A stretch of DNA of 64,000 nt from an uncultured Veillonellaceae bacterium (GTDB lineage: Bacteria; Bacillota; Negativicutes; Selenomonadales; Selenomonadaceae), in the NCBI GenBank assembly GCA_902773295.1, contig CACYDT010000106.1, forward strand, positions 4,028 to 68,027, read 5' to 3'. Shown in pieces: positions 34,111 to 62,054 of the stretch. Each line of letters begins with the position of its first letter. Within the stretch, counting starts at the first letter, position 1. Position numbers and translations under genes: made by a program. Below the pieces are notes generated by a model. The model saw nothing but the letters and a program-made list of their open reading frames with translations, was not told the origin of the DNA and made no database searches.

Positions 34111-34131
34111 GAAACAATAGGTGGGATGCAG

Positions 34132-43253: not shown

Positions 43254-43273
43254 GGCTCCGCAGAGCGTATCGG

Positions 43274-43304
43274 ATACCGCGTCCCGGTGGGGCGCGGTAT
43301 TTTC
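43274..43304 (+). terminator. Intra-operon intrinsic terminator or attenuator after the binding-protein gene
   Basis: ataccgcg / cgcggtat stem with an 11-nt loop, followed by tttt. Confidence 0.6.
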
Positions 43305-43366
43305 TTATGGAAAAATCGGAACAAGAGTGATAAAATAAAAAAGTATTTAAATTTTGGAAGAACAGG

Positions 43367-44041: not shown

Positions 44042-44747
44042 GAATTTGCACAAGTCCTTCGGGGAGGCGCATATCCTCAAGGGCATCGACCTCCATATCG
44101 CGGCGCAGGAGGTCGTGGTCATCATCGGCCCCTCCGGTTCCGGCAAGAGCACCCTTCTTCGGTGCATGAACTACCTGGAAGAGCCTACCAAGGGAAAGAT
44201 TACGGTGGACGGCATTGAGCTTTCCGGCGAGGCGAACATCAACAAGGTCCGCACAGAGGTCGGCATGGTGTTCCAGCGGTTCAACCTTTTTCCTCATATG
44301 ACGGTGCTGGACAATATCACCTTGGCTCCCCAAAAGGTTCGCAGGATGCCAAAGGGGGAGGCGGAGACCCTTGCCCGTGAGCTTCTGGGGAAGGTGGGAC
44401 TGGCAGACAAGGCGGATGCTTTTCCGGAACAGCTTTCCGGCGGGCAGCAGCAGCGGGTTGCCATTGCCCGGGCGCTTGCCATGCGCCCAAAGGTCATGCT
44501 CTTCGACGAGCCGACATCGGCACTGGATCCGGAGATGGTAGGGGAGGTGCTGGATGTCATGCGGAGCCTTGCGAAATCCGGCATGACCATGGTGGTGGTG
44601 ACCCATGAGATGGGTTTTGCCAGGGAAGTGGGCGACCGCCTGCTCTTTGTGGACGAGGGACGCATCGTGGAGCAGGGGGATCCCCGGGAGGTTTTCGAGC
44701 ATCCAAAAGAGGAGCGGACGAAATTGTTCCTGTCGAAGGTGCTGTAG
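44028..44747 (+). CDS. Amino-acid ABC transporter ATP-binding protein (GlnQ type)
   Basis: Walker [10 protein letters not shown], signature [15 protein letters not shown], Walker [12 protein letters not shown]. The start at 44028 lies inside listed ORF 43998. Confidence 0.9.
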
Positions 44748-44803
44748 TGCAGGCAGAAGGAAATTTTGGGGAACCGATGAGACGGACTGAGGGAGGAGCA
44801 ACC

Positions 44804-46876: not shown

Positions 46877-46909
46877 AATGGCAATATCATAGAAAGGAAA
46901 GTGCGTGCA

Positions 46910-47641
46910 ATGAAAGCGTTGATTCTTAATTCAGGCGCGGGAGTCAGGCTGCGTCCTTTGACAGAAACACAGCCCAAATGCATGACGAAGATCTCGCCGG
47001 AGGAAACGATACTGGGACGTCATTTGCGTCAATTGGCAGATGTGGGAGTGGAGGAGATTGTCATTACAACAGGACCCTTTGAGAGGGAACTTGTTCAATA
47101 TGCAGAAGCGCATGGAGAGAAACAAAAGGTTACGTTTGTGAAGAATCCGGAATATGACCGAACGAATTATATTTATTCGATTTTCTGCGCTCGGGAATAT
47201 TTGGGGGGAGATATCCTTCTTCTGCATGGGGATTTGGTATTTGCTGATGAGGTTTTGCGCCGTGTGATGGATTTCGATGGGAGCTGCATGGTGACGAGCT
47301 CTGCTGTGCCATTGCCGGAAAAGGATTTCAAGGCCGTTCTTTCGGGAGAATACATCAAGGCCGTAGGCATTGAGTTCTTTGAACATGCCGTTGCTGCCCA
47401 GCCTTTGTATAAATTGCTCCGGAAGGATTGGCAGGCATGGCTGTCCAGGATCGAGATGTTTTGCAGGAACGGCAGGAGAAATTGCTATGCGGAGAATGCA
47501 TTCAACGAAATTTCCAATCAATGCAGGATACATCCGCTAGAGGTCGGGAATCTTTTCTGTCAGGAAGTGGATAGCTTGGAGGATTTGGATCTTGTGGTTT
47601 CCGGATTGAGAACTTTGGATTCGGAGGATTCTGCTATATGA
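46910..47641 (+). CDS. LicC/sugar-phosphate-type nucleotidyltransferase (candidate phosphonate cytidylyltransferase)
   Basis: MKALILNSGAGVRLRPLTETQPKCM is the G-x-G-x-R-L N-terminal NTP-transferase motif. About 243 aa. ATGA coupling to the downstream dehydrogenase. Confidence 0.7.
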   Translation: MKALILNSGAGVRLRPLTETQPKCMTKISPEETILGRHLRQLADVGVEEIVITTGPFERELVQYAEAHGEKQKVTFVKNPEYDRTNYIYSIFCAREYLGGDILLLHGDLVFADEVLRRVMDFDGSCMVTSSAVPLPEKDFKAVLSGEYIKAVGIEFFEHAVAAQPLYKLLRKDWQAWLSRIEMFCRNGRRNCYAENAFNEISNQCRIHPLEVGNLFCQEVDSLEDLDLVVSGLRTLDSEDSAI

Positions 47642-48780
47642 ACGGGAGATGGCCCAAGGTTCTCTCGCCGGGAGATGATTATGCGGATATCGATGCTTAT
47701 CTCCTTGGCAAGGGAGTCCGGAAAATTTTTCTTGTGCATGGGAAATCTGCAAAGAATCTTAGGGTGGGACGTTATTTTTTCGGTCTTCCGGAGCGCATGG
47801 GGATTTCTTTGCGTTCCTTTACGGATTTCTGCCCGAATCCGTCCTTTGAGTCTGTTGTGAACGGGGTGAAGGATTTTCGGGAGCACGGCTGTGACATGGT
47901 CGCAGCTCTTGGCGGTGGGAGCGCCATAGATGTTGCAAAATGCGTTAAGCTGTATGCGGACATGCCTGATGATGCATGTGCTCTTCCACAGAAAATCCGG
48001 CCGAACGACATACCTCTCTTGGCTGTTCCGACTACGGCGGGAACAGGGAGCGAGACCACCCGGTATGCCGTGATTTATTTTGATGGCGAGAAGCAGTCCA
48101 TTTCTCATGAGACATGCATTCCGGAGGCTGTATGCATAGATCCGTCCGTACTGATGACGTTGCCGTTGTATCATCGCGCTTCTTCCATGCTGGATGCTCT
48201 TTGCCATGCCATGGAATCCTGGTGGTCGGTGAACTCCACGGAGGAAAGCCGTCGGTATTCCCGGGATGCCATGAGGCTTATTCTGGCGTGTAGAAAGGAA
48301 TATATGCAGGAGGATTCCCGTGTGTTCGGGCATATGATGCAGGCAGCGCATTTGGCAGGGAAGGCTATCGATATCACACAGACGACGGCGGGGCATGCGA
48401 TGTGCTATAAGCTGACCGGTCGTTACGGGATTGCCCATGGCCATGCGGCTGCTCTCTGCGATGCGGCACTCTGGCCATATATGATGGAACATCTGGAGGA
48501 TTGCTGCGATGTGCGCGGAAAGAACTGGCTGGCAGGAATTTTTGGGGAAATGGCCGAAACGATGGGGTGCGGTGATGTGCGGGAAGCGGCAGCGGTTTTG
48601 CCGAAATTTCTGAAGGAACTTGGCATGGAGAAACCTTCCGGCACGGAGGAGGATCTGGACTTTCTGGCAGCTTCCGTGAATCCCGTGCGTCTGAAGAACC
48701 ATCCCGTCCGAATGAGCAGGGAGGCGTTTCGGTACCTATATGACGAGATCGTATGGATACATAGGCCGATGGAGGAATGA
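47638..48780 (+). CDS. Iron-containing (group III) alcohol dehydrogenase, candidate phosphonoacetaldehyde reductase
   Basis: GGGSAIDVAKCVK, TTAGTGSE and His-rich metal motifs (H..CH..E, GIAHGHA). Functional assignment is from context with pepM and ppd. Confidence 0.7.
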   Translation: MNGRWPKVLSPGDDYADIDAYLLGKGVRKIFLVHGKSAKNLRVGRYFFGLPERMGISLRSFTDFCPNPSFESVVNGVKDFREHGCDMVAALGGGSAIDVAKCVKLYADMPDDACALPQKIRPNDIPLLAVPTTAGTGSETTRYAVIYFDGEKQSISHETCIPEAVCIDPSVLMTLPLYHRASSMLDALCHAMESWWSVNSTEESRRYSRDAMRLILACRKEYMQEDSRVFGHMMQAAHLAGKAIDITQTTAGHAMCYKLTGRYGIAHGHAAALCDAALWPYMMEHLEDCCDVRGKNWLAGIFGEMAETMGCGDVREAAAVLPKFLKELGMEKPSGTEEDLDFLAASVNPVRLKNHPVRMSREAFRYLYDEIVWIHRPMEE

Positions 48781-48804
48781 TAGGAGAAGGGGGGAGGCTT
48801 GGGG

Positions 48805-50925
48805 ATGAGATATCCGGAGGGAGATCCGAGGGGAAAGGAATTATTTTCGGCACTGGAGGAAAGGGCAGAACAGGGGATGTATGATGATGCGTACTTGTGG
48901 ATGCTCATCGAATACCAGAGCCTGTATCCGGAATCCGAGCATTTTGATATATTTTATGCGAAATATGCCATGTTTCATAAAAATTACGGAGTGGCATTGG
49001 AGCATGCGGGAAAGGCATTCGGGAAACGAAGGATCAGCTTGGAGGTATGGAGGCTTTTCGCTGATTCTTGTATCGCATTGGGCAGGCCGGAAGAAGCGCT
49101 TCCTTTTCAGGGCTACTGCTGCAATTTTTACAGGCAGCCATTGGAGATATCTATGCCGGAGGCGTTGCTCAAAAAGAACTTGGGGAGACTGAGTCTGGCC
49201 ATGGGGCGTGGGAATTGCGCACCTCTTTGTGAATGCAAGATGTCTTATGATGGTGGGGAAATGAGTTCGTCCAAGACTGTGTTCGGCGCGGAATTCCTTC
49301 CCGTGGGCGCAGATGAGGAAGGGTATTCGTATTGGGTTGGCGTATACAATGAATCTGCAGGAATTGGAACCAGGGGAAAGCATTTGGAACGGGAAATGAA
49401 GTCGGGAACGGCAGGTTTCTTCGAGGGCGATGATGTTGTGTACGATATTATGCGTTCCAAGATTGCGAGGGAGGTGCTCGTTGAGCCGAAGGGAAGCCCT
49501 GTTGCGCTTCCAATCGCGGCAGCGACGGCCGCTGCAGAGAAGCAGCGTGTGGATTTTTCGTCGGGAGGAGAGACAGAATGCGGATGCCTGGGGCAATGGG
49601 AGTACAGCTTTTTCCGTGTGGAAAAGCCGACCAGGATTTCCTCGGAATATCCCTTGGTCTTTGGAAGACCGATTCCCTTGCAGCATAATTCCAAACGGAA
49701 GCGGTTGGTTCTCAATATCCTGGTGGATGCTTTGAGCTGGCATATGTTTCGCAGGGAGAGGTTCCGCTATATGCCCAATATGATGGACTTTTTCTCCAAG
49801 GGAATCATTTTCGACCAACAGTTTTCTGTTTCGGAGTATACGTATCCATCGTTGCCGTCTATTGAGACGGGACTGTATCCTCATCATTCCCAAATTTTCA
49901 GTGAGCGGGCGGCCATAGAGATCGACAGGAAGCATCTCACGATTTCGGAGCAGATGAAGGGGCTCGGCTATTACTGCACCAACCTCATGGGAGGAGGGCA
50001 TGCGATATACAACGGCGCAACGAGGGGCTATGACAGGCTGGTTACGAATTTCTGCGATTTGTCGGCGTATGCCGGCACTGAAAGGGCGATTCGTCAGATG
50101 GAAGCCTTTTCAGAATGTGACCAGTTTATTTTTTTGCATTTCATGGAAGTCCACCCCTGGCCTGCGGGGAGCATTCCCTACCCGTTGGAGACACAGGTGC
50201 ATCTTCCTTTGCGGGAGCGGTTGGCCAGAGCCGGCGTTGGGAATGCGAGCGTCCGCCTTCCCGATGCGGCAGTTTACCAGGAGGCAAATCGCCGGGGATT
50301 GGCGCATGTGGACAGCGGCCTGAAAAAATTGTTCGATTACATTACCGCTCATTATGATGAGGACGAATACATCGTTCAGCTGTATTCTGACCATGGAGTT
50401 TCCATTTATGACAAGGTGCCGGATCTTTTGGGAGATAACCAGACGGGGACGGCGTATATGATGAGAGGTACCGGGGTTCCCAAAAAGGGCATGGTGGAGG
50501 AACTGACGAGCACGGTGGATATTTATCCTGTTCTCGGAAAGCTGGCAGGGTTCCGAGGGGACGCTCGTGTGGATGGCAATCTTCCTGCCGTTTTCGGTGG
50601 AACGGAACGAGATCATGTCATAAGCTATTCCCTGTTCCCGGGACAAACTTACAAGCTCCGCATCCGAACGAAAGTGCATGAGTTCTATCTGGAATCTACG
50701 GAGCTTGTCAACGAGGACGGCACGGTGGATTTGTCCGGAGCAGAATTGTCGATTCGTACAAGAGATGGATCTCGCCGGCCGGTGACGGAGCCGGCTGTCA
50801 TGAACCGCTTCCTTGAGCTGGTGAAGGAATACACGAAATCCTTCAACAACGAAGGCCGCCAATGGAGGTCCATGATGGAGTCCAGGCCGGAGTGGTATGG
50901 CAAGGAAAAGAAAGTTTCACATTGA
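48805..50925 (+). CDS. Cytoplasmic Thr-type sulfatase-fold protein, paralog 2 of 5
   Basis: LNILVDALSW, EYTYPSLPSIETGLYPHHS, YSDHG, VDIYPVLGKLAGF. The ATG at 48805 follows AGGAGAAGGGGGGAGG. The listed ORF begins at TTG 48799. Confidence 0.7.
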   Translation: MRYPEGDPRGKELFSALEERAEQGMYDDAYLWMLIEYQSLYPESEHFDIFYAKYAMFHKNYGVALEHAGKAFGKRRISLEVWRLFADSCIALGRPEEALPFQGYCCNFYRQPLEISMPEALLKKNLGRLSLAMGRGNCAPLCECKMSYDGGEMSSSKTVFGAEFLPVGADEEGYSYWVGVYNESAGIGTRGKHLEREMKSGTAGFFEGDDVVYDIMRSKIAREVLVEPKGSPVALPIAAATAAAEKQRVDFSSGGETECGCLGQWEYSFFRVEKPTRISSEYPLVFGRPIPLQHNSKRKRLVLNILVDALSWHMFRRERFRYMPNMMDFFSKGIIFDQQFSVSEYTYPSLPSIETGLYPHHSQIFSERAAIEIDRKHLTISEQMKGLGYYCTNLMGGGHAIYNGATRGYDRLVTNFCDLSAYAGTERAIRQMEAFSECDQFIFLHFMEVHPWPAGSIPYPLETQVHLPLRERLARAGVGNASVRLPDAAVYQEANRRGLAHVDSGLKKLFDYITAHYDEDEYIVQLYSDHGVSIYDKVPDLLGDNQTGTAYMMRGTGVPKKGMVEELTSTVDIYPVLGKLAGFRGDARVDGNLPAVFGGTERDHVISYSLFPGQTYKLRIRTKVHEFYLESTELVNEDGTVDLSGAELSIRTRDGSRRPVTEPAVMNRFLELVKEYTKSFNNEGRQWRSMMESRPEWYGKEKKVSH

Positions 50926-50955
50926 CAAATATGCATTTGTTGAGGAGGGAATGAT

Positions 50956-52998
50956 GTGAAATATCCAGGAGGAAGTGCAGAAGGAAAGAAGCAGTTTCGA
51001 ACATTGGAGGAACGGGCGAAAAAGAATCTTTACGATGATGAGTTTTTGTTGCTTCTCATAGAATATCAACGCATGCATCCTCAATCAGAACATTTTGATA
51101 TTTTTTATGCCCGGTATGCCGCATTTCATGGGAATTACCGGGTGGCATTGGAACATGCAAAAAAAGCCTATGCATGCCGCAAGCAGGACGCAGAAACGTG
51201 GAAACTGCTGGCAGGGATCTACGAAAGGATCGGGGACAAGTATCATGCGGCTTTGTATCTTGGTCTGGTGTCTCTGGACAATGAAAAGACGTTGATGGAT
51301 ATCACCGGTAAGGAAAGTGTGGCAGGGCTGGAGATGGCTCATACGAGTCCTGCCTTGGCGCCCTTTAAGCAGTCTGCGGTCTTTGTCGGGAATGCAATCA
51401 AGTTCCAGGACGGATTGTTTCTGGGGGAGCAGCTTCCTATGGAAGAAAACGGGAAAGAAGGTTACTGGGTCGGGATCTATAATATGGATGGCAGGAGGGA
51501 AGCCAGGACATTTTTATTGGACAGGATCAAGGAGTTCCACCTTCCTATGTCAAACTATTGTGACATGACCTTTGATTGCTTGCGGGCGACACTCAAGAAG
51601 ACGATGGAGGTCTCATTGAAGCAGGAGGAAAAATGTATTCTCCCGCTTTCCGGCACGGAGCATTTTCAGAAGATCAGGATTCAGGAAGAGGGTGGGGCAT
51701 GTCATCATGCAGTTTTGGCAAAATGTGAGACCATGTTTCTCCGGCTGGAAAGCCCTGCGCATATTACATCTGACATTCCTTTTGCAGTAGGAAATCCGGT
51801 GCTTCTGGCGCACAGTCCCGAAAGGAAGAAGGTGGTGCTGAATATTTTAGCGGATGGGCTGAGTTGGGCGGAGCAAAAAAAGGAAGGTTTTGCCAATATC
51901 CCAAACATCCTTCGTTTTTTTGGAAAGGGGATCATTTTCAATCAAAATTTTTCAGAAACAGAGTATACATACCCTTCCTTGGCAGCCATTGAGACAGGGA
52001 TGCGCACGGCGCATTCTCAAATTTTTCATGACGGCCGCTATGTTTCTCTGGAACCTTCCATTCTTACCATCTCTGAGCAAATGGGAAAACTGGGATATTA
52101 TTGCGTCAATGTTCAAGGGAATGGGGAAGGCATTTACAATGGTGTTACCAGAGGGCATGAGCGTGTGCTTGTTAACCATTATCACCATCCGGCCTATGTG
52201 GGGGTTGAGCGGACGATACGTCAGCTCGAAGCATTCTCGGAAACGGATCAGTTCATTTTTCTCCATATGACAGATTCCCATCCATATAATAGCGACATGA
52301 ATATCTTGGAAGATGCACAGACGCATCTGTCCTTGAAAGAGCATTTGCAGAACATAGATCGAAGCACTTCTGTATGTGTTGCTGCGAATCAGCGGAATCA
52401 GTGGGTGAATCGCAAGAGAATACGAAATATGGATCGCCAGCTTGGCAGCTTGTTCCGATACATAGAGGATCATTACAAAGAAAACGAGTATATCGTTCAT
52501 CTGTATTCAGATCATGGGTGCTCCGTTTACAGTGAGCAACCGTGGCTGATGGATGAATACCAAACGTCTTCGGCACTGATGATGCGCGGTGATGGAATAC
52601 CGCATCTTGGTTTTGTCGAGGAACTGACGAGCGTATGGGACATTTATAAAATCGTCGGACATAATTGCCACTATCCGGTGGATGGCACGCATTTGGACGG
52701 GAATCTGCCGGAGGTGCTGGGAGGGAAGAGAAGAGAGTATGTCTGGAGCAATTCCATATATCCGGGACAGACGTATAAGCTCTGCTTGCGGACAGAAACT
52801 CATGAGTTTCGCCTGGAGACAGAGCATCTTACACGGGAAAACGGAACCGTCAAGCTGCATCCGTATCGTACGCGTCTTTTCCTTCGCAATGGGGAGCATA
52901 CGGAGATCCGGGAGGAAGGGACGGAAAAGATGTTTATGAAGTGGATTCTCGAGGATAGGTACCATATCTTTTGCGACGAGTTGCCAAAAGGATCGTGA
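50956..52998 (+). CDS. Cytoplasmic Thr-type sulfatase-fold protein, paralog 3 of 5 (most divergent)
   Basis: GTG start after GAGGAGGGA. LNILADGLSW, EYTYPSLAAIETGMRTAHS, YSDHG, WDIYKIVGHNCHYP. More A/T-rich than the other paralogs by eye. Confidence 0.65.
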   Translation: MKYPGGSAEGKKQFRTLEERAKKNLYDDEFLLLLIEYQRMHPQSEHFDIFYARYAAFHGNYRVALEHAKKAYACRKQDAETWKLLAGIYERIGDKYHAALYLGLVSLDNEKTLMDITGKESVAGLEMAHTSPALAPFKQSAVFVGNAIKFQDGLFLGEQLPMEENGKEGYWVGIYNMDGRREARTFLLDRIKEFHLPMSNYCDMTFDCLRATLKKTMEVSLKQEEKCILPLSGTEHFQKIRIQEEGGACHHAVLAKCETMFLRLESPAHITSDIPFAVGNPVLLAHSPERKKVVLNILADGLSWAEQKKEGFANIPNILRFFGKGIIFNQNFSETEYTYPSLAAIETGMRTAHSQIFHDGRYVSLEPSILTISEQMGKLGYYCVNVQGNGEGIYNGVTRGHERVLVNHYHHPAYVGVERTIRQLEAFSETDQFIFLHMTDSHPYNSDMNILEDAQTHLSLKEHLQNIDRSTSVCVAANQRNQWVNRKRIRNMDRQLGSLFRYIEDHYKENEYIVHLYSDHGCSVYSEQPWLMDEYQTSSALMMRGDGIPHLGFVEELTSVWDIYKIVGHNCHYPVDGTHLDGNLPEVLGGKRREYVWSNSIYPGQTYKLCLRTETHEFRLETEHLTRENGTVKLHPYRTRLFLRNGEHTEIREEGTEKMFMKWILEDRYHIFCDELPKGS

Positions 52999-53041
52999 GA
53001 GAGGAAAGTATGGATTGAGATTTCGTTAGGGAGGAATTTAT

Positions 53042-55141
53042 GTGAGATACCCAGAAGGAAATCCAATGGGACGGGATTTATTCAGGGCATTGGAACAGCG
53101 GGCGGAGAAAAAAGCTTATGATGATGAATTCTTGTTGCTCCTTGTAGAATATCAGCGTATGTATCCGAAATCCGAGCACTTCGATATCTTTTACGGGTGC
53201 TATGCTGCTTTTCACGGGAATTATGGCGTGGCCTTGGAGCATGCACGAAAGGCATATAGGAGACGAAAGGCATGTCGCGAGGTGTGGAAGCTTCTTGCAG
53301 GATGCTATCATGCCTTGGGGGAGCATGAGAAAGCTGTCCCGTTTGAAGGATATCTCAGCAAGTTTTCAGGCGTGCCGGCGTATGTGACGGTTCCCGTGGA
53401 TTATATGCCACAGGCATTAAAGGAACTGAGCCTTACGAAAGGAGAGGCCATGTATGCCCCCTTATGTGTGAGCAAATGTTCTTTGAAGGACGGAAATGTA
53501 GTTGTGCAGGGAGGCATGTTTTGCGGTGAGATGATTCCCTTCTCGTCGGACAGGGAAGGGTATGGCTATTGGGTTGGCGCATACAATGAAGCCGGTTCCA
53601 TTGGTGGTCCGGGAAAGCTGATGCAGAATGTGGGAATGTCGGACGAGGCATTGGAGTCAGGCGCTGCGGATATTGTGTATGATGTTGTTCGTGCGAAAGA
53701 AGCGAAAGAAGCATTTGTGGATCTGCAGGGAGATACGCTTATTGTTCCTGTCGCTGCAACATCCGGGAACCAGGTTGCAGCGTTTCAGGGGCGGGATCTG
53801 GACGATTCTGCTCTCCTTGGGCAATGGGAGTACGATTTTTTTCGTATGGACCGGCCTGCCCGCATATCTTCTGAGTCTCCGCTTGCCTTTGGCAGGCCAA
53901 TCCGATTGGGGCATAGCAATAAACGGAGAAAACTTGTGCTGAATATTTTGGTGGATGCACTTAGTTGGAACGAGTTCCGCAAGCAAGGATTCCGGCATAT
54001 GCCGCGCATGATGAAGTTCTTTTCTGAAGGGGTGGTGTTTGACCAGCATTTTTCGGCGGCAGAATATACGTATCCATCCTTGGCTTCCATCGAAACGGGG
54101 ATGTATCCGTATCATTCCCAGCTTTACCAGGAAGGCGTGGTCGTGCAGCTCGACGAGGAGTATACGACACTGTCGGAGCGCATGAAAGAATTGGGATATT
54201 ATTGCGTCAATATTATGGGGCAAGGGGGAGGGCTGTACAATGGCGTGATGCGTGGGTATGACAGGCTTTTGATCAGTGCCTATGACTTGCCGGCATATGC
54301 AGGCGTGGAACGAGCCATTCGTCATTTAGAGGCATTTTCGGAATGTGACCAGTTCTTGTTCTGCCATTTTCTGGAAGTTCATCCATGGTCATCAAAAGTA
54401 GCTCATGTAGGTATGGGAGTGCAAACGAAGCTTTCCTTGAAGGATAGGATGAACGGAAAGGAAAAGCGTGTGCCGAGTGTGTTCCTTCCCAAATCTCCCT
54501 TGTATCAGATGGCCAACCGACAGGCGATGGAGAATACAGACCGAAGTTTGGGGGTGCTGTTTGACTACATTGCAGAGCATTATGATGAGGATGAGTATAT
54601 CGTACAGCTGTATTCCGATCATGGTGTTTCCGTCTATGATGAAGTCCCGTACATTTTGAGCGACAATGCGACGAGCGCTGCATGGATGCTGCGTGGGCAT
54701 GGTGTTCCGAAAAAAGGGATGGTAGAAGAGCTGACAAGTGCGGTGGACATCTATCCGACTCTTGGAAAATTGGCAGGGTTCCCGACAGGGGACTGGGTGG
54801 ATGGCAATCTTCCAGCGGCATTTGGAGGCAGGGAACGAGAATGTGTATATAGTAATTCCTTATATCCTGGGCAGACATACAAGCTCTGCATTAGGACGAG
54901 GGAACATGAGTTTCGTTTGGAATCCTTGGGCGCTGTGCATGAGGATGGAACGGTGGATCTTTCCGGGGCGGAGCTGACAGTTTGTACACGAGATGCGTCC
55001 CATCGTCCCGTGGAAGATCCGGCAGTCATGAACCGTTTCCTCGAGCTGGCGAAGGAATATACGGAATCCTTCAACAACGAGGGCCGCCAATGGCGTCTCT
55101 TGCCGGAACCGGAGCAGTACGGCAAGGAAAAGAAATTTTGA
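53042..55141 (+). CDS. Cytoplasmic Thr-type sulfatase-fold protein, paralog 4 of 5
   Basis: GTG start after GGGAGGA. LNILVDALSW, EYTYPSLASIETGMYPYHS, YSDHG, VDIYPTLGKLAGFP. Closest to paralog 1 along its whole length. Confidence 0.7.
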   Translation: MRYPEGNPMGRDLFRALEQRAEKKAYDDEFLLLLVEYQRMYPKSEHFDIFYGCYAAFHGNYGVALEHARKAYRRRKACREVWKLLAGCYHALGEHEKAVPFEGYLSKFSGVPAYVTVPVDYMPQALKELSLTKGEAMYAPLCVSKCSLKDGNVVVQGGMFCGEMIPFSSDREGYGYWVGAYNEAGSIGGPGKLMQNVGMSDEALESGAADIVYDVVRAKEAKEAFVDLQGDTLIVPVAATSGNQVAAFQGRDLDDSALLGQWEYDFFRMDRPARISSESPLAFGRPIRLGHSNKRRKLVLNILVDALSWNEFRKQGFRHMPRMMKFFSEGVVFDQHFSAAEYTYPSLASIETGMYPYHSQLYQEGVVVQLDEEYTTLSERMKELGYYCVNIMGQGGGLYNGVMRGYDRLLISAYDLPAYAGVERAIRHLEAFSECDQFLFCHFLEVHPWSSKVAHVGMGVQTKLSLKDRMNGKEKRVPSVFLPKSPLYQMANRQAMENTDRSLGVLFDYIAEHYDEDEYIVQLYSDHGVSVYDEVPYILSDNATSAAWMLRGHGVPKKGMVEELTSAVDIYPTLGKLAGFPTGDWVDGNLPAAFGGRERECVYSNSLYPGQTYKLCIRTREHEFRLESLGAVHEDGTVDLSGAELTVCTRDASHRPVEDPAVMNRFLELAKEYTESFNNEGRQWRLLPEPEQYGKEKKF

Positions 55142-55143
55142 CG

Positions 55144-55172
55144 TTGACAAAATATGCATTTATCGGTATGCT
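55144..55172 (+). promoter_or_regulatory. Partial copy of the csp promoter: TTGACA-N17-TATGCT
   Basis: Identical to 57370-57396 through the -35 box and spacer (ttgacaaaatatgcatttatcggtat), then diverges. Lies upstream of paralog 5. Confidence 0.45.
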
Positions 55173-55255
55173 GCAGAATTCTTAGACAATGAGAGGCAGT
55201 GTTGGAAGTTACGTGAATTGAAGATATGTTTTGCAAGGGCTGAGGGGGGAATGAT

Positions 55256-57367
55256 GTGGAATATCCAGGAGGAAATGCAGAAGGAAAGAAGCAGTTTCAA
55301 ACATTGGAGGATCGGGCGAAAAAGAATCTTTACGATGATGAGTTTTTGCTGCTTCTCATAGAATATCAGCGCATGTATCCTCAATCAGAACATTTCGATA
55401 TTTTTTATGCCCGGTATGCCGCATTCCATGGGAATTACCGGGTGGCATTGGAACATGCAGAAAAGGCTCGCCGGAAGCGCATGGTCAATTTTGAAGTGTG
55501 GAAGCTCTTGATAGAATGCTATACTGCGTTGGGGCAGATAGAAAAAGCAATGATCTTCCAGGGATATTGCTGCAAATTTTATGGAAGAGCAGTGAAAGCG
55601 GTGATGCCCAAGGGGAAATTGCAGGAATGCCTGGACAATCTGACGCTGTCCATGAACTGTGGAAATTACGCGCCTTTCTGCGAGAAGAGAATGTATTTTT
55701 GGAAAATGTCTTTGCGTGAACGAAATGGCATCTGGGGAGGGGAGTATCTTCCGTTACCGCAGGATCAAAATGGTTACTCTTACTGGATCGGCGCGTACAA
55801 TGAATTGAGTATTCGGGGAGGGCGCGGTATGCTCCTGGAAGATGCGAAGAAGCTGGAGCATTTCTTTCAGGCAGCAGGCGGCGATTTTGTCTTTGACATT
55901 ATGCGATCGAAGAGCAGGAAGGAGTGGGTCGTGAAGCCGGGCAAGGCACCTATGATTTTGCCGATTGCAGCGACGGAACAGGCGCAAAACGTGCGATTTC
56001 GCGCAGAAGGGCTGGAAGATGAGGTGCGCTTGGGGCAGTGGGAATACAATTTCTTTCGCATGGACAGGGAGACCAGGGTATCCTCTGCATCGGAAGCGCC
56101 TCTGGTATTTGGGCGTCCGATTCCTTTGGGGCATAGCAAGAGGCGCAGGCGCATTGTCTTGCACATCCTGCTGGATGCCTTGAACTGGAACATGCTGAAG
56201 GAGCAAGCATCCCTGTACATGCCTCATACCATGGAGTTTTTTTCCAAAGGGGTGATTTTCCGTCAGCATTTTTCGGTAGGGGAGTATACCTACCCGTCCT
56301 TGCCGACCATCGAGACAGGCATGTATCCCCATCATTCCCAGATTTTCAACGAACGGGCGGCTGTCCAGCTTGCTCCCGAATATATTACGTTGTCGGAACG
56401 CATGAAGGATTTAGGGTATTATTGTGCCTATGTCATGGGGGGAGGGCATGGCATTTACAATGAGACCACGCGGGGATACGATCGCTTGCTGGTCAATTCC
56501 TATGATTTGCCGGCGTATGTTGGCGTGGATCGCGTGATCCGGCAGTTGGAAGGACTTTCCGAGTGCGATCAGTTCCTGCTTTTGCATGTCATGGAAGCGC
56601 ATCCTTGGAGCATCAGGAAATTTCCGGTTTGCTTTGAGACTCAAGTGAAGACTTCCTTGCAAGAAGCACTGTCAAAGGAGCGGGAAGGACTTGCGAGCGT
56701 ATATCTGCCCAATTCGTCGGTTTACCAGGAAGCCAACCGTCAGGGCATGAGGCGCATAGATCGGAATTTGAAGCACCTGTTCGATTTTATTCGGGAGCGG
56801 TATGATGAAGATGAGTACGTTGTACAGCTTTACTCCGATCATGGCAGCCCCATTTATGATGATGCCCCCGGTATTCTAAGCGACGGTCAGACGTGGTCGG
56901 CATATATGGTGAGAGGAGCCGGTGTTCCGAAACGGGGCATGGTGGAAGAACTCACGAGCGCAGTAGACATCTACCCTGTGCTTGGGAAGTTGGCGGGCTT
57001 TCCCGTGGGAGAATGGGTGGATGGCAATCTTCCGGCCGTTTTCGGTGGAACGGAACGCGATCATGTCATAAGTTATTCCATGTTCCCGGGACAGACCTAT
57101 AAGCTCTGCATCCGGACCAAAGTGCATGAGTTCTATCTGGAATCTACGGAGCCTGTCAACGAGGATGGTACGGTAGACCTGTCCGGGGCTGAGCTGTCCG
57201 TTCATACAAGAGATGGGTCTCGCCGGCCGGTGACGGAGCCGGCAGTCATGGACCGCTTCCTCGAGCTGGTGAAGGGATACACGAAATCCTTCAACCACGA
57301 AGGCCGCCAATGGCGATCCATGATAGAGTCCAGGCCGGAGTGGTACGGCAAGGAAAAGAAATTTTGA
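55256..57367 (+). CDS. Cytoplasmic Thr-type sulfatase-fold protein, paralog 5 of 5 (mosaic)
   Basis: GTG start. LHILLDALNW, EYTYPSLPTIETGMYPHHS, YSDHG, VDIYPVLGKLAGFP. The head is near-identical to paralog 3 and the body and tail are like paralog 2. Confidence 0.7.
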   Translation: MEYPGGNAEGKKQFQTLEDRAKKNLYDDEFLLLLIEYQRMYPQSEHFDIFYARYAAFHGNYRVALEHAEKARRKRMVNFEVWKLLIECYTALGQIEKAMIFQGYCCKFYGRAVKAVMPKGKLQECLDNLTLSMNCGNYAPFCEKRMYFWKMSLRERNGIWGGEYLPLPQDQNGYSYWIGAYNELSIRGGRGMLLEDAKKLEHFFQAAGGDFVFDIMRSKSRKEWVVKPGKAPMILPIAATEQAQNVRFRAEGLEDEVRLGQWEYNFFRMDRETRVSSASEAPLVFGRPIPLGHSKRRRRIVLHILLDALNWNMLKEQASLYMPHTMEFFSKGVIFRQHFSVGEYTYPSLPTIETGMYPHHSQIFNERAAVQLAPEYITLSERMKDLGYYCAYVMGGGHGIYNETTRGYDRLLVNSYDLPAYVGVDRVIRQLEGLSECDQFLLLHVMEAHPWSIRKFPVCFETQVKTSLQEALSKEREGLASVYLPNSSVYQEANRQGMRRIDRNLKHLFDFIRERYDEDEYVVQLYSDHGSPIYDDAPGILSDGQTWSAYMVRGAGVPKRGMVEELTSAVDIYPVLGKLAGFPVGEWVDGNLPAVFGGTERDHVISYSMFPGQTYKLCIRTKVHEFYLESTEPVNEDGTVDLSGAELSVHTRDGSRRPVTEPAVMDRFLELVKGYTKSFNHEGRQWRSMIESRPEWYGKEKKF

Positions 57368-57369
57368 CG

Positions 57370-57398
57370 TTGACAAAATATGCATTTATCGGTATAAT
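57370..57398 (+). promoter_or_regulatory. Consensus sigma-70 promoter TTGACA-N17-TATAAT of the cold-shock gene
   Basis: ttgaca at 57370-57375 and tataat at 57393-57398. Confidence 0.8.
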
Positions 57399-57452
57399 AT
57401 CACTCATGGCTATCCATCGGCCAGGGTTTATTAGATTTAGGGGGAATTTTAC

Positions 57453-57653
57453 ATGGTAGGCAAGGTTAAATGGTTCAGCGCTGAAAAGGGCTATGGATTC
57501 ATTGAAAGGGAAGACGGCGACGATGTGTTCGTTCATTTTTCCGCAATCCAGGATGAGGGCTTCAAGACTCTGACGGAAGGCCAGGGCGTTGAATTTGACA
57601 TCGTGGAAGGTGCCCGTGGTCCGCAGGCGGCGAATGTCGTTAAGACGGCCTGA
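57453..57653 (+). CDS. Cold-shock protein (CspA family)
   Basis: [33 protein letters not shown] contains the RNP1 and RNP2 motifs. 66 aa. Confidence 0.95.
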
Positions 57654-57671
57654 TCTTTATATCGCAATTAT

Positions 57672-57705
57672 CCCGGTCTGCTTGGGCAGGCCGGGTTTTG
57701 TTTTT
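57672..57705 (+). terminator. Intrinsic terminator after csp
   Basis: cccggtctgc ttgg gcaggccggg, followed by ttttgttttt. Confidence 0.85.
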
Positions 57706-57805
57706 CAAGGAGAAAATTTTCCTGTTCCGCTGCAAAGGAAAAGAAGGGATTTTCTCTTGGATGAAGAATATTAAGTATAAGCACAGAAGAAAGGGGATGT
57801 GTCAC

Positions 57806-58348
57806 GTGGCAACATTCACTGTAAGAGGCAAGAACATCGAGATTACTCCTTCGCTTCGGGAGTATGTGGAGAAGCGCGTAGGCAAGATCGAGAAATATTT
57901 CGAGAAGGTTGATGAGATCACCGTGCTCCTGACGGTGTCCAAGGGCCGCCATATCGTGGAGGTTACGGTGCCGGTATCAGGCGGCGTACTGCTTCGTGGC
58001 GAGGAGGCCACGATGGATATGTATACATCGATTGATCTGGTGGTGGAGAAACTGGAACGCCAGATCCGGAAGCAGAAGACGAAACTGGAGCGCCGCTTCC
58101 GCCAGGGCGGCTTCAAGTCCGAGGCGGTGCAGGAAGGCCCCATTCCGACAAAAGACGAGGGAGAAGAGTACACGGTGGTGAAGACGAAGAAGTTCGTGGT
58201 GAAGCCCATGGATACCCAGGAGGCTATCATGCAGATGAACCTCCTGAACCACAATTTCTTCGTGTTCCGGGATTCCTCCACGGAAGCGGTCAATGTGGTC
58301 TACCGTCGCACGGATGGGAACTACGGGTTGATTGAATCAGAGAATTGA
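57806..58348 (+). CDS. hpf: Ribosome hibernation-promoting factor, long form (HPF/YvyD)
   Basis: ATFTVRGKNIEITPSLREYVEKRVGKIEKYF...VEVTV plus the C-terminal dimerisation domain (VVKTKKF.VKPM...EAI.QMNLL.H.FFVF...T..VNV.YRR.DG.YGLIE). A GTG start at 57806 is preferred. An ATG at 57797 is also possible. Confidence 0.9.
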   Translation: MATFTVRGKNIEITPSLREYVEKRVGKIEKYFEKVDEITVLLTVSKGRHIVEVTVPVSGGVLLRGEEATMDMYTSIDLVVEKLERQIRKQKTKLERRFRQGGFKSEAVQEGPIPTKDEGEEYTVVKTKKFVVKPMDTQEAIMQMNLLNHNFFVFRDSSTEAVNVVYRRTDGNYGLIESEN

Positions 58349-58465
58349 CAGAGTGCGGCCATCTTGTGTGTGGAAGGTGGATGCGTGATTGGATGGACGA
58401 TCCTAAGGCTTGCTTCCGGCAAGCCTTATTCTATTCCATCCCATGCAGTACGGGGAGGGGCAGGG

Positions 58466-59623
58466 ATGTTTCAGGTAGCGTTATACGGTACGGGCGAGGG
58501 CGGCATTCTCATGCGGAGAATCATTGAGGAGGCATATAATGAGGTTGCCGGGCGGCATCAGGGGGACAGGATGTCGGTGGCGGCATGGGTGACGGACCGG
58601 GAGGGTTCAAGCTCCGTGATGGACGGATTGGCGGTACTTGATATTGAGAGATTCCGGGCACTCTATTCCAAAGGGCTTTTCCATGGGATCATCCTTCCGC
58701 GAGAGGAGTTCTTTGGCATGGCTCAGCCGATCATCCGGCTTCTTCATAGCGGCGTGGACGTACGGGACATCTATGTGTCAAAGCGGGTGACCACAACAGA
58801 GTTCAAGGAAGGGGAACTGCTTTCCTTTTTTGAGCCATATCTTAGTGCGAAGTACCTGCCCTATCTTGAGTTTCATGTGGCAGACCACTGCAATTTGAGG
58901 TGCAAGGCATGCGAGCATTACTCAGGACTTGTCACCGAGCCGCATGTTCCGGAGTTTTCCTGTTTTGCCAAGGATATGCAGAGGCTTCAATCCTTCATCG
59001 ACGATATTGGCATGATACGGATTTTGGGCGGAGAACCCTTGCTGAATCCGGATATCAATGATTATATGACATTGACAAGAGAACTCTACCCTTATGCTGT
59101 CATTTGCGTGGTGACCAATGGGCTGCGCCTCTTGGAAATGCCGGAGGACTTTTTCCGGACGATGCGGGAGCAAAGGGTGCATGTCCATCTTTCGGCTTAT
59201 CCGCCCATGAGGGAAAGGATTCCTGCCATGGAAGCCAAATTGAGGGAGGAGGGAATTTTGTGCATCACGTCGCCTGTTTCGGAGACTTTTCAGATGAATC
59301 AGAGTCTTGATGCGGCGAAAAACTCTGATTATTTCTACAAATGTTTCCAATCAAGATGCCATAATTTCTATGAGGGAAAGTTGGCGATATGTCCTCTTCC
59401 TTTTATGACGAAGTACTTCAATGCATATTTCAAGCAATGCCTGCCGGAGGATGGGCAGATTGACCTGTATGACGGCTCGTTGACCACGGAAGAACTGAAG
59501 ATTCGCTTGCTTACTCCACTGGAACGCTGTCGGTATTGCCGAAATCCCGTTCCGGTGGAGTGGAAGCAGATTAGGAAACAGAGCGTCCTGTCGGACTGGA
59601 TTGAAGAAGGGAAAAAACAATGA
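58466..59623 (+). CDS. Radical SAM protein with extra C-terminal Cys motifs; function unknown
   Basis: CX3CX2C in HVADHCNLRCKACEHYS. C-terminal Cys residues (CFQSRC...CPLP...CRYC) suggest an auxiliary cluster. An N-terminal domain of about 120 aa (FQVALYGTGEGG). The stop overlaps the pepM start (ATGA). Confidence 0.7.
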   Translation: MFQVALYGTGEGGILMRRIIEEAYNEVAGRHQGDRMSVAAWVTDREGSSSVMDGLAVLDIERFRALYSKGLFHGIILPREEFFGMAQPIIRLLHSGVDVRDIYVSKRVTTTEFKEGELLSFFEPYLSAKYLPYLEFHVADHCNLRCKACEHYSGLVTEPHVPEFSCFAKDMQRLQSFIDDIGMIRILGGEPLLNPDINDYMTLTRELYPYAVICVVTNGLRLLEMPEDFFRTMREQRVHVHLSAYPPMRERIPAMEAKLREEGILCITSPVSETFQMNQSLDAAKNSDYFYKCFQSRCHNFYEGKLAICPLPFMTKYFNAYFKQCLPEDGQIDLYDGSLTTEELKIRLLTPLERCRYCRNPVPVEWKQIRKQSVLSDWIEEGKKQ

Positions 59624-60915
59624 AGAAAGTCTATACTTGTTTTTGCACAGATGTAATACATGAGGGGCATTTGAACATTCTTCGGAAGGCAGAGGAGTAT
59701 GGCGAGGTGGTCGTCGGAGTCCTTTGCGATCCGGAAATGGTGCGTTACAACCGATTTCCAAGCAAGTCCCAGGAGGAGCGCATTGCCATGGTGGAGGCGC
59801 TGCCCGGGGTATCGAAGGTCGTTGTCCAGCAGGAAATCATGTATGACAGGATTCTGGAGGAACTGCGTCCGGACTATGTCATTCATGGGGACAACTGGAA
59901 GGAAGGACCGGCATCCTGCATCCGTGAGAATGTGCTATCGGCATTGGGAAAATACGGCGGCGAGCTCATTGAGGTTCCCTATACCCGCAGCCTGGCCGTG
60001 GCGAAGGTGGACGATCGCATGCGGGAGCTTCTGGCCATGCCGGAGCAAAGGCGGGGCAGGCTTCGGAAGCTTATCGATATGGTTCCCGTCGTCAAGACCA
60101 TCGAAGTGCACAGCGGCCTCACAGGGCTCATTGCGGAGAAGACGATCGTCCAGAACAATGAGGGAGTGGATCAGTTCGATGCCATGTGGATTTCCAGTCT
60201 TTGCGATTCCACGGAAAAGGGGAAGCCGGATATCGAACTGGTGGATATGTCCTCCCGCATCCGCACCATCGAGGATGTCATGGACGTGACGACGAAGCCC
60301 ATCATACTGGATGCTGATACAGGCGGACTCATCGAACATTTCGTCTATCACGTGAGGACATTGGAGCGCATGGGGGTCTCCGCCATCATCCTGGAAGACA
60401 AGGTGGGGCTGAAGAAGAACTCCTTGTTCGGTACGGAGGTGGAGCAGACCCAGGATAGCGTCGAGCATTTCAGCGAGAAGATTGCGGCGGGAAAGGCAGC
60501 CCAGCGCACGGAGGAATTCATGATCATTGCCCGCATTGAGAGCCTGATTCTGGAAAAGGGCGTGGAAGATGCTTTGGAGCGGGCAAGGGCGTATGTGAAG
60601 GCAGGTGCGGACGGCATCATGATTCACTCCAGGAAGAAGGAGCCGGATGAGGTTTTTGCTTTCTGCAAGTCCTTCCGGGCAGAGTTCCCAAAGGTTCCCT
60701 TGGTCGCTGTGCCCACATCCTATCGGCAGGTGACGGAGAAAGAACTGGCAAAGTGGGGCATCAATATCGTCATTTATGCCAACCAGCTTCTTCGGAGCGC
60801 ATTCCCTGCCATGGAGCGCACGGCCAAGAGCATCCTCGTGAACCATAGGGCGCTGGAGGCAGACAAGGATATGATGCCGATCAAAGACATCATTTCCTTG
60901 GTGGATACTTTGTAG
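59620..60915 (+). CDS. pepM: Bifunctional cytidylyltransferase-like domain plus phosphoenolpyruvate mutase
   Basis: N-terminal domain with HxGH (CFCTDVIHEGHLNIL), as in TagD-type cytidylyltransferases. The C-terminal domain has the PEP mutase-diagnostic EDKxxxxxNS (ILEDKVGLKKNS) plus DADTGG. Confidence 0.85.
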   Translation: MKKVYTCFCTDVIHEGHLNILRKAEEYGEVVVGVLCDPEMVRYNRFPSKSQEERIAMVEALPGVSKVVVQQEIMYDRILEELRPDYVIHGDNWKEGPASCIRENVLSALGKYGGELIEVPYTRSLAVAKVDDRMRELLAMPEQRRGRLRKLIDMVPVVKTIEVHSGLTGLIAEKTIVQNNEGVDQFDAMWISSLCDSTEKGKPDIELVDMSSRIRTIEDVMDVTTKPIILDADTGGLIEHFVYHVRTLERMGVSAIILEDKVGLKKNSLFGTEVEQTQDSVEHFSEKIAAGKAAQRTEEFMIIARIESLILEKGVEDALERARAYVKAGADGIMIHSRKKEPDEVFAFCKSFRAEFPKVPLVAVPTSYRQVTEKELAKWGINIVIYANQLLRSAFPAMERTAKSILVNHRALEADKDMMPIKDIISLVDTL

Positions 60916-60932
60916 AGCGGAGGGTATGGAAT

Positions 60933-62054
60933 ATGCAGGTGATGGACTTTGTTGAAGTATTGGGGAGTGACTTTTATGCAGGGGTACCCGACTCTTTGCT
61001 GAAGCCCCTGTACAATTATTTGATTCAAACCTATGGCACGGATCCTCTGCATCACATTATCGCCGCCAACGAGGGAAACTGCGTGGCTTTGGCGGCAGGC
61101 TATCATCTGGCGACGGGGAAGGTTCCCGTGGTGTACCTCCAGAACAGCGGGGAGGGGAATATCATCAATCCCTTGGCATCCCTTCTCTCGGAGAAGGTCT
61201 ACGGGATTCCCGTCATCTTCGTCATTGGCTGGCGCGGGGAGCCGGGAGTCCATGATGAGCCACAGCATGTGTTCCAGGGAGAGGTCACGGAAAGACTGCT
61301 GGAGGTTATGGATGTTCCCGGTGTTGTCGTTGGTAAGGAAACGACGGAGGATGAGATACGGGGAGCCATGGAAAGATTCCGCGAGTTCCTTTCCCAAGGG
61401 AAGTCCGTGGCCTTTGTCGTTCGCAAGGGGGCGCTTGTTTCCGAACAAGTAGTTTCGTACCGCAATGGCAACACACTGAAGCGGGAGGAAATCATTGCTT
61501 GCATTGTGGAAGCATCCGGAGAGGATTTTATCGTTTGCACCACGGGCAAGGCCAGCCGGGAGCTTTTCGAGATCCGGGAGGCACATGGGGAAGGCCATGG
61601 GAAGGATTTCCTGACCGTTGGTTCCATGGGACACAGCTCGTCTATCGCACTGGGCATTGCCCTGCAGAAGCCGGAGCGGCGTATATGGTGCATGGACGGG
61701 GACGGCGCCGCCCTCATGCACATGGGGGCTATGGCAGTCATCGGGAACGCGAAGCCCGGGAATCTCATCCATGTGGTCATCAACAACGAGGCCCATGAGA
61801 GCGTCGGCGGAGCGCCCACCGTTGCGGGAACCGTTGATTTCCCGGAAGTGGCTCTGGCCTGTGGCTATGGATATGCGGCCAGTGTATCGTCTTTGGAAGA
61901 TTTGAAAAAAGTCCTGTCGGAGGCCAAGAAATCGGATGTATTGAGTTTCATCGAGGTGAAATGCGCCATCGGAGCAAGGGCAGATCTGGGACGGCCGACG
62001 ACTACGCCTCAAGAGAATAAAGCGGCGTTCATGAAAAGGTTGGCGGAATTTTGA
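60933..62054 (+). CDS. ppd: Phosphonopyruvate decarboxylase (ThDP-dependent)
   Basis: FYAGVPDSLLKPL...AANEGNCVALAAGYHLATGK...VYLQNSGEGN..NPL.SL, then MGHSSSIALG...DGDGA..MH.G. About 373 aa, immediately after pepM. Confidence 0.8.
   Translation: MQVMDFVEVLGSDFYAGVPDSLLKPLYNYLIQTYGTDPLHHIIAANEGNCVALAAGYHLATGKVPVVYLQNSGEGNIINPLASLLSEKVYGIPVIFVIGWRGEPGVHDEPQHVFQGEVTERLLEVMDVPGVVVGKETTEDEIRGAMERFREFLSQGKSVAFVVRKGALVSEQVVSYRNGNTLKREEIIACIVEASGEDFIVCTTGKASRELFEIREAHGEGHGKDFLTVGSMGHSSSIALGIALQKPERRIWCMDGDGAALMHMGAMAVIGNAKPGNLIHVVINNEAHESVGGAPTVAGTVDFPEVALACGYGYAASVSSLEDLKKVLSEAKKSDVLSFIEVKCAIGARADLGRPTTTPQENKAAFMKRLAEF

Follow-up and report, generated by a model that had tools for sequence, protein, structure and literature searches.

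The steps that link nucleotide-activated phosphonates to macromolecules have been called 'enigmatic' (Rice et al. 2019, PMC6697681). In Clostridioides difficile, a species without pepM, the type A flagellin glycan was found by mass spectrometry to carry 2-aminoethylphosphonate (AEP) (PMC8861647), and this was the only precedent found in the literature for a phosphonate on a flagellin O-glycan. Gene clusters of the type considered here are known from Selenomonas. In Li & Horsman 2022 (PMC8942020), GCF 400 carries 'multiple sulfatases', is of the AEP transaminase (AEPT) type and corresponds to the 'Group 4 phosphonolipids' of Yu 2013. Neighbourhoods of the 2-hydroxyethylphosphonate (HEP) type make up 8.5% of ppm loci in the same paper. 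The locus described below lies in a 64,000-nt stretch of contig CACYDT010000106.1 from an uncultured Veillonellaceae bacterium of the Selenomonadaceae lineage. This whole stretch is referred to as the window, and it carries phosphonate pathway genes together with five sulfatase-like paralogs.

Among enzymes that modify surface filaments, those of the EptC type use phospholipid donors, the donor of PptA is not established, and the Lic-1 pathway is not known to coexist with PptA-type enzymes (PMC10434233). Literature searches yielded no paper in which flagellin of Selenomonadaceae carries a phosphonate or phosphocholine, and none that describes a phosphonate transferase of the sulfatase-like kind.

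All results presented here are computational. The region is read, with a probability of roughly 0.6, as that part of a flagellin-modification island which deals with phosphonates; in it, a pathway to cytidine monophosphate-activated HEP (CMP-HEP) would feed transferases encoded by the paralogs. Both the families to which the pathway enzymes belong and the type of cluster are known, and the enzymes are ordinary representatives of these families; what is new is the switch from AEPT to an iron-dependent alcohol dehydrogenase (Fe-ADH).

Predicted Pathway to 2-Hydroxyethylphosphonate

The genes of the region were all intact and all located on the + strand, and every gene claimed in an earlier note on this DNA was found in place. 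That note had predicted that a phosphoenolpyruvate (PEP) mutase (PepM), a phosphonopyruvate decarboxylase (Ppd) and a PhpC-type Fe-ADH, without a transaminase, would lead to HEP, and the comparisons below support this route.

The gene at 59620-60915 encodes a fusion of a cytidylyltransferase-like (CyTase) domain, residues 1 to about 140 with HEGH, and a PEP mutase domain, residues about 148-431 with EDKVGLKKNS; the motifs ILEDKVGLKKNSL and HEGH are visible in the translation. Pfam matches were PEP_mutase (1.3e-56) and CTP_transf_like (4.6e-13), corresponding to PF13714 and PF01467. The score against the NCBIfam equivalog TIGR02320 was 406.4 bits (cut-off 319.55), and the next-best models, phosphonopyruvate hydrolase and methylisocitrate lyase, scored far lower. 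The diagnostic EDKxxxxxNS motif was thus accompanied by a score above the cut-off, and the assignment to PepM stood when weighed against other branches of the isocitrate-lyase superfamily. The ppd gene (60933-62054) adjoins pepM, beginning 18 nt downstream of it. Its product reached 465.7 bits against TIGR03297 (cut-off 312.5) and matched TPP_enzyme_N and TPP_enzyme_C.

The group III Fe-ADH (47638-48780) matched Pfam Fe-ADH (8e-35) and ADH_Fe_C, with the accessions PF00465 and PF25137, and the metal-ligand Asp/His motifs DALCH, GHA and HGH are readable in its translation. Its best NCBIfam model was TIGR03405 (Phn_Fe-ADH) at 148.7 bits, below the cut-off of 423.7, so that hidden Markov models (HMMs) of the family alone were not decisive. 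Homologues at 52-57% identity bear the NCBI name phosphonoacetaldehyde reductase, and a copy on a 2-kb metagenome contig was 100% identical.

Homologues of the ADH with 52-63% identity were located directly 3' of PepM in all four of the other arrangements examined, and preceded Ppd as well where the contig extended far enough. The first was an NTase-PepM fusion followed by ADH (L079), NTase denoting a nucleotidyltransferase. The second was an NTase-CyTase-PepM triple fusion followed by ADH and Ppd, with two LicD genes and a flippase (L088/L089). A triple fusion was also present in L168, followed by an ADH that was 62% identical by tblastn, and the Treponema locus L169 carried CyTase-PepM, ADH and Ppd with a TagF-like enzyme. 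On account of this conserved neighbourhood, the Fe-ADH is predicted to be a phosphonoacetaldehyde reductase yielding HEP.

The gene that comes after the NTase gene encodes AEP transaminase in Selenomonas ruminantium HD4 (L010) and the ADH in the window. The ADH thus occupies the position of AEPT, which suggests that the branch point has been switched from AEP to HEP. A scan against Pfam or NCBIfam of about 50 + strand open reading frames (ORFs) of the window, all at least 150 aa long and taken for genes, revealed no aminotransferase. Likewise, tblastn with the AEP transaminase, LicD and choline kinase of a relative gave no match in the 64 kb, and the earlier statement that the window contains no pyridoxal phosphate-dependent aminotransferase was upheld by both approaches. 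It is considered very likely that HEP is made by this locus.

Nucleotidyltransferases

Two proteins could activate the phosphonate. The N-terminal HxGH domain of the PepM fusion aligned over its full length, 133 residues, with the CyTase domain of Fom1 (PDB 5x3d, E 8e-32). For Fom1, CMP-HEP formation is reported as shown in PMC6697681, where Cho et al. 2017 is cited for it. The domain is accordingly a Fom1-like cytidylyltransferase by homology, with HEP as the predicted substrate.

The separate NTase (46901-47641, probable ATG at 46910) is of LicC/PntC type, as had been proposed. It matched NTP_transferase / NTP_transf_3 (PF00483/PF12804), carries the signature GxGxR(x)nPK as GAGVRLRPLTETQPK, and had PDB matches to LicC (1jyk, 6e-10) and Tde-PntC (6pd1, 1e-5). 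Its stop codon overlaps the ADH start (ATGA), which indicates translational coupling of the two genes, again in agreement with the earlier note.

Over its full length, the window NTase was 54-64% identical only to PepM-fused NTase domains from ADH-containing clusters, whereas with LicC or the NTases of AEPT clusters it shared about 30-39% identity in an alignment of roughly 100 aa. By sequence comparison it belongs to a subclade seen only in ADH-containing clusters, which had not been recognized before and argues for HEP rather than AEP as the substrate. The identities of NTase and ADH moved together across loci (64/62, 54/56 and 54/52%), so that NTase and ADH appear to form a co-inherited HEP-type module. 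Activation of HEP as CMP-HEP is regarded as likely.

The earlier note regarded the presence of two different nucleotidyltransferases as unusual. This did not hold. The PepM comparison covered 80 genome loci with the PepM fusion, and more than 575 candidate stretches, from Selenomonadaceae and Lachnospiraceae, were matched. Among the 80 loci, the NTase of this cluster was found in 57, AEPT in 58 and Ppd in 69. The pairing of CyTase-PepM with a separate NTase is therefore common, and it is already published: Rice et al. 2019 (PMC6697681) described fused-plus-separate NTases, and recorded triple fusions at 2.8-2.9%. Triple fusions were also present in HEP clusters, as described above, and L169 has the CyTase alone, with no second nucleotidyltransferase type.

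Two observations on the distribution of the CyTase-PepM fusion may be added. It was 69-76% identical between Selenomonadaceae and many Lachnospiraceae (L016-L086, L064, L073) and occurred also on contigs binned as Cloacibacillus and Methanobrevibacter, a spread that suggests horizontal transfer or mis-binning. In L073, L024 and L079 it adjoins an alternative module (with Ppd also adjoining in L073 and L024) consisting of a metallophosphoesterase, an NAD-epimerase/dehydratase, the NTase-like DUF6564 and a saccharopine-dehydrogenase-like protein. This module itself contains neither AEPT nor Fe-ADH, and L079 has a separate upstream NTase-PepM-ADH module. It may represent an uncharacterised phosphonate branch.

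Sulfatase-like Paralogs

Five paralogs of 680-709 aa, mutually 41-67% identical, surround the NTase and ADH genes. Paralog 1 (44747-46876, Pfam Sulfatase and Phosphodiest) probably starts near 44810. It is followed, downstream of NTase and ADH, by paralog 2 (48799-50925), paralog 3, the most divergent of the five (50956-52998), paralog 4 (53042-55141) and paralog 5, or Sulf5 (55256-57367), all of the same sulfatase-like family. This array, mentioned in the earlier note but not recognized there as such, is the likely set of transferases.

An AF2 model was obtained for paralog 5 (pLDDT 80.6, pTM 0.84). It comprises helical repeats (residues 8-133), a beta domain (141-286) and an alkaline phosphatase (AP)/sulfatase fold (300-700). 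In a Foldseek search against the PDB, the model matched S1 sulfatases (E 3e-16) at 13-17% identity, and also 3lxq and PbgA; the fold search did not separate hydrolases from transferases.

At the position where sulfatases have C/S-x-P-x-R, the sequence is T-Y-P-(S/A)-L in each of the five paralogs and in 15 relatives, as in the motif EYTYPSL, with Thr for the formylglycine Cys/Ser and Leu for the motif Arg. The paralogs are consequently ruled out as true (formylglycine) sulfatases. Residues D307, T345, D528 and H529 (Sulf5 numbering; alignments A1/A2) were invariant, and SDHG and a further His were kept. Judged from the alignments, Thr with this Asp/His ligand set marks those members of the superfamily that transfer phosphoryl groups and does not mark sulfatases.

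No transmembrane segment was found in the paralogs with a 19-residue hydropathy window (maximum KD19 ≤1.31), which points to soluble, cytoplasmic proteins and rules them out as membrane enzymes of the LtaS/EptA kind. The beta domain was the most divergent part, with a mean identity between paralogs of 38% compared to 54-59% elsewhere, and it would set acceptor specificity.

A GlnHPQ-like ABC transporter (42462-44747) lies upstream of paralog 1, and the apparent overlap of the two disappears with the likely paralog start near 44810. A role of the transporter as an importer of head groups was considered and found no support, since it is GlnHPQ-like, scores below the cut-offs and is missing from related loci.

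Distribution of the Paralog Family

Full-length members of the family gave about 310 matches, and every match with a named organism came from Selenomonadaceae (Selenomonas, Schwartzia and Anaerovibrio). Among 1.84 billion representatives, the N-terminal 290 residues had no more than 107 matches, and nearly all of these showed the same architecture. One protein, P0462 (1364 aa), has the N-terminal module of the family and a sulfatase-like domain fused to a TPR-GT2-methyltransferase-TPR part.

A total of 78 family loci was compiled, 76 from a metagenome scan together with L090 and L091, and features were counted within 10 kb. A gene for head-group supply or transfer was found near the paralogs in 62 of the 78 loci; the 16 loci without a donor gene were mostly short or incomplete contigs. 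PepM, Ppd or AEPT occurred in 48/78 loci, where the paralogs, in 2-7 copies, typically lay inside the operon; the typical order was NTase-PepM-AEPT-(paralog x2-7)-Ppd. AEPT accompanied the family in 30/78 loci, a divergent choline kinase-LicC-BCCT operon in 8/78 and LicD genes in 6/78. A flagellin gene was next door in 14/78. ADH was found in 0/78 loci, and the window is thus, from its gene content, a third, HEP-supplied variant, which is rare.

Genomes of the Anaerovibrio type share a paralog-flagellin-GT2-GT2-GT41 slot that is supplied by either of two modules: choline kinase/LicC/BCCT in L090, L091, L100, L107-109 and L113, and AEPT-PepM-NTase-Ppd in L099 and L111. Between L099 (AEP module) and L100 (choline module), the paralogs were 89.6% and the flagellins 93% identical. 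Since near-identical paralogs are paired with either module, the paralogs are probably head-group transferases, and the simplest reading of these comparisons would be a transferase that accepts CDP-choline or CMP-AEP.

Flagellin-Modification Island

The window is a late-flagellar region containing a ComFC-like gene, two copies of FlgN, FlgK, FlgL, FliW, FlaG and FliD. The earlier note had inferred a donor for flagellin or glycan decoration, and the surroundings of the pathway genes indeed form a flagellin-modification island. The candidate acceptor is the flagellin at 31302-32618 (+), which was 67% identical to the flagellin adjoining an Anaerovibrio member of the paralog family. A second flagellin gene lies at 2847-4286 (+).

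Four GT41 and four GT9-type glycosyltransferases, several GT2 and GT2-TPR proteins and one methyltransferase are encoded in the island. One GT9 (1105-2331) has a TibC N-terminal domain of the protein-heptosyltransferase type; further GT9 genes are located at 32539-33954 and 34126-35403. Three or four TibC-like GT9 genes are also present in L170, and these enzymes are probably protein-directed flagellin glycosyltransferases. Two tandem FliB lysine-N-methylase paralogs (7167-8351 and 8344-9564) scored 214 and 245 bits against NF038110 (cut-off 85), so that the flagellin probably undergoes methylation in addition to glycosylation. Among the scanned ORFs of the window, none was seen for a polyprenyl carrier, a flippase, a polymerase or lipid synthesis/head groups.

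Within the flagellar region, a Uma2-family endonuclease (4390-4938) and a YqeB-type selenium-dependent molybdenum-cofactor maturation protein (5346-6479) were also observed.

The csp-hpf Interruption and the Radical SAM Gene

The pathway genes are separated by csp, encoding a cold-shock protein of 66 aa (57453-57653), and hpf, encoding a ribosome hibernation factor (57698-58348, probable start near 57797); secA begins at about 62148. All three are + strand backbone genes, placed as the earlier note had them. The csp gene has a promoter at 57370-57398 (TTGACA-17-TATAAT, 12/12 consensus) and a terminator at 57672-57695 (10-bp stem, 8 GC, followed by a T-run), and a hairpin was found 3' of hpf at 58404-58428. 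From these signals, csp is a predicted separate monocistron bracketed by its own promoter and a strong terminator. The pathway would consequently be transcribed in at least two units, paralog 1-NTase-ADH-paralogs 2-5 and radical SAM-pepM-ppd, parted by two housekeeping monocistrons.

The order late flagellar genes-hpf-secA is a conserved arrangement in Bacillota, as in Bacillus subtilis, and the modification island therefore appears to have been inserted on both sides of csp/hpf. The nearest relatives were uncultured rumen Selenomonadaceae; in the closest (L007; csp 97%, hpf 94% and PepM 88% identical) the order is csp-hpf-pepM, with no radical SAM gene in between. Most relatives have the pathway in a single block, NTase-PepM-AEPT-paralogs-Ppd. 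The split emphasized in the earlier note is thus real, whereas the significance attached to it did not stand, as the backbone genes have their own signals and the relatives have one block; it looks like a rearrangement around backbone genes with no evident functional meaning.

The radical SAM gene (58364/58466-59623) ends in an overlap with the pepM start. Its product of about 385 aa carries CNLRCKAC (CX3CX2C), an N-terminal domain of about 130 residues and five further invariant Cys (alignment A3). The only Pfam match was PF04055, and a cobalamin-binding (B12) domain was not found. The best NCBIfam models (MoaA, viperin, twitch) were all far below their cut-offs, and the best PDB match was 7wzv (E 9e-9). 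Homologues were located between flagellin and glycosyltransferase genes in Butyrivibrio and Lachnospiraceae (L003-L006), within Selenomonad islands with GT41 and TibC-like GT9 genes (L170-L172) and once in a housekeeping context (L001), with no pepM in any of these contexts. Conversely, the gene was absent from all 80 PepM loci and from the 76 paralog loci. A role as a Fom3-like methylase of CMP-HEP is ruled out by the lack of a B12 domain and by the pepM-free flagellin and glycosyltransferase contexts of the family. By context, the protein is classed as a tailoring enzyme of the flagellin island, not as a phosphonate enzyme.

At the start of the window (310-1071), upstream of the TibC-like GT9 and flagellin genes, lies the gene for a further radical SAM protein, which is small (253 aa) and not related to the first.

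Alternative Interpretations

Several points weigh against the proposed route from HEP to flagellin. To our knowledge, no enzyme of the AP superfamily uses a nucleotide-activated donor for group transfer. The known transferases LtaS, EptA and PptA are anchored in the membrane, and lipids are the donors wherever a donor has been defined. In their fold, the paralogs come nearest to S1 sulfatases, which are hydrolytic, and the active-site loop of the model is of low confidence. The ADH score lies far under the TIGR03405 cut-off (148.7 vs 423.7), and an AEP transaminase could be encoded elsewhere in the genome. The need for a second nucleotidyltransferase is not accounted for by the HEP model, and the group could be placed on a glycan that is not carried by flagellin.

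It is possible, though unlikely, that the phosphonate is carried by an envelope molecule (phosphonolipid, lipopolysaccharide or capsule), that the flagellar neighbourhood is incidental and that precursors of the envelope are the substrates of the sulfatase-like proteins. An earlier binning, for which PMC8942020 cites Yu 2013, put the pepM clusters of Selenomonas that have 'multiple sulfatases' into 'Group 4 phosphonolipids'. The partners of the same CyTase-PepM core in Lachnospiraceae and Treponema are proteins typical of wall polymers, namely LicD, TagF-like/YidC-fused and membrane sulfatase-like ones. However, genes for lipid synthesis, polyprenyl carrier, flippase and polymerase were not found in the scanned window, and the paralogs are soluble. 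Moreover, family members adjoin flagellin and flagellin-type GT41 and GT2-TPR genes in 14 loci, and the N-terminal module is confined to 107 representative clusters, nearly all of this architecture.

Still less probable is a role of the paralogs as hydrolases (phosphodiesterase or phosphonate monoester hydrolase) that trim, edit or recycle the product or release HEP in the manner of FomD, the transfer itself being carried out by another protein. The nearest matches in sequence and fold are sulfatases and one phosphonate monoester hydrolase, the best NCBIfam model is the phosphoric/sulfuric ester hydrolase PehA, although far below its cut-off, and the LicD genes of six family loci could be the real transferases there. 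Yet neither the window nor the typical NTase-PepM-AEPT-paralogs-Ppd operons contain LicD, a TagF-like enzyme or another candidate phosphotransferase, and the formylglycine motif required by sulfatases and phosphonate monoester hydrolases is missing. Up to seven tandem paralogs in a biosynthetic operon, and the GT2-methyltransferase fusion in P0462, fit tailoring better than recycling.

An end product that is still AEP, or AEP and HEP together, with a transaminase elsewhere or AEP scavenged in the rumen feeding the NTase and with the ADH as a minor branch, is equally improbable: AEPT accompanies this type of PepM in 58/80 loci and the paralog family in 30/78, two nucleotidyltransferases are present and the characterised PntC enzymes prefer AEP (PMC6697681), but the window NTase falls in a subclade seen only with ADH, the ADH sits in the AEPT position after the NTase, and the ABC transporter nearby, which resembles an importer of amino acids of the GlnHPQ type, has not been conserved together with the system.

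Proposed Mechanism and Comparison with Known Systems

According to the reading preferred here, the CMP-HEP route would comprise five steps. The PepM domain would convert PEP to phosphonopyruvate, from which Ppd would form phosphonoacetaldehyde; for these two steps the assignment is shown by curated family models. In the third step, the Fe-ADH, in the place of the AEP transaminase, is predicted from the conserved gene neighbourhood to reduce phosphonoacetaldehyde to HEP. Homology to characterised enzymes suggests that HEP is then converted to CMP-HEP by the Fom1-like CyTase domain, by the HEP-clade LicC/PntC-type NTase or by both. For the fifth step we infer, from comparative genomics and active-site residues only, that CMP-HEP gives up its phosphonyl group to the conserved Thr of the paralogs, CMP being the leaving group, and that the paralogs then pass it, while flagellin is still in the cytoplasm and awaiting export, to hydroxyls of flagellin or its O-glycans.

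The transfer of the HEP group to flagellin or its glycan by the paralogs is given slightly less than an even chance. Somewhat more tentatively, the paralogs could constitute a new class of cytoplasmic transferases that move HEP, AEP or phosphocholine from cytidine donors to flagellin or O-glycans through a Thr-linked intermediate. Stated in terms of known enzymes, the job of LicD would then be done by a fold like that of PptA, with donor modules swapped between strains; this formulation is equally tentative.

If correct, this would be the first genetic route to phosphonate-decorated flagella. It would provide a possible genetic basis for phosphonate-modified flagella, which are so far known by mass spectrometry only, in C. 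difficile. The locus and its relatives offer a candidate family of transferases for the attachment of phosphonates. The pairing of a near-identical transferase and flagellin with a phosphocholine or an AEP module, and the presence of a HEP module here, amount to a natural experiment, and flagellin is a concrete candidate acceptor that is easily purified and suited to mass spectrometry. The Selenomonas 'multiple sulfatase/phosphonolipid' clusters could be re-read as flagellin-decoration systems, the flagellin context and the donor-module swap providing a testable hypothesis for the 'sulfatases'. In gut and rumen bacteria, zwitterionic or anionic head groups on flagellin could have consequences for motility, for the adsorption of phages and for recognition by TLR5.

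Compared to known systems, the same enzyme set, including the CyTase-PepM fusion and predicted CMP-HEP, is found in the early fosfomycin pathway of Streptomyces (Fom1, Fom2 and FomC). In contrast to that pathway, the window lacks a Fom3-like radical SAM methyltransferase of class B (B12), and neither HppE nor FomD was detected among its annotated ORFs. Its CMP-HEP would be a donor for the decoration of a macromolecule, not a transient intermediate of an antibiotic.

The PntC tailoring pathways (PMC6697681) and the Selenomonas GCF 400/Group 4 clusters (PMC8942020) belong to the same lineage and cluster type. They share with the window the CyTase-PepM fusion and Ppd, an NTase of LicC/PntC type that is encoded separately, and sulfatase-like genes in tandem, and differ in having AEP transaminase where the window has Fe-ADH. 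For GCF 400/Group 4, the earlier prediction was a phosphonolipid, whereas the context described here points to flagellin, and the role of the 'sulfatases' had previously not been addressed.

Neisseria PptA, which adds phosphocholine or phosphoethanolamine to pilin, and Campylobacter EptC, which acts on the flagellar rod protein FlgG, have the same superfamily fold as the paralogs, with the Thr nucleophile position and the metal-ligand Asp/His in common. Both decorate a protein of a surface filament with a phospho head group that is small or zwitterionic. Unlike the paralogs, they have an N-terminal membrane domain and act in the periplasm; the paralogs are soluble, have a helical-repeat and beta N-terminus and are partnered with CMP/CDP donors. 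The N-terminal multi-pass membrane domain of LtaS, EptA and PptA is likewise missing from them.

LicD has the same predicted job, the transfer of a cytidine-activated head group, but its fold is unrelated to that of the paralogs. No LicD is present in the window, while in Lachnospiraceae and in L088 it is the partner of the same PepM core. Finally, the phosphonate of C. difficile flagellin is AEP, whereas for the window HEP is predicted.

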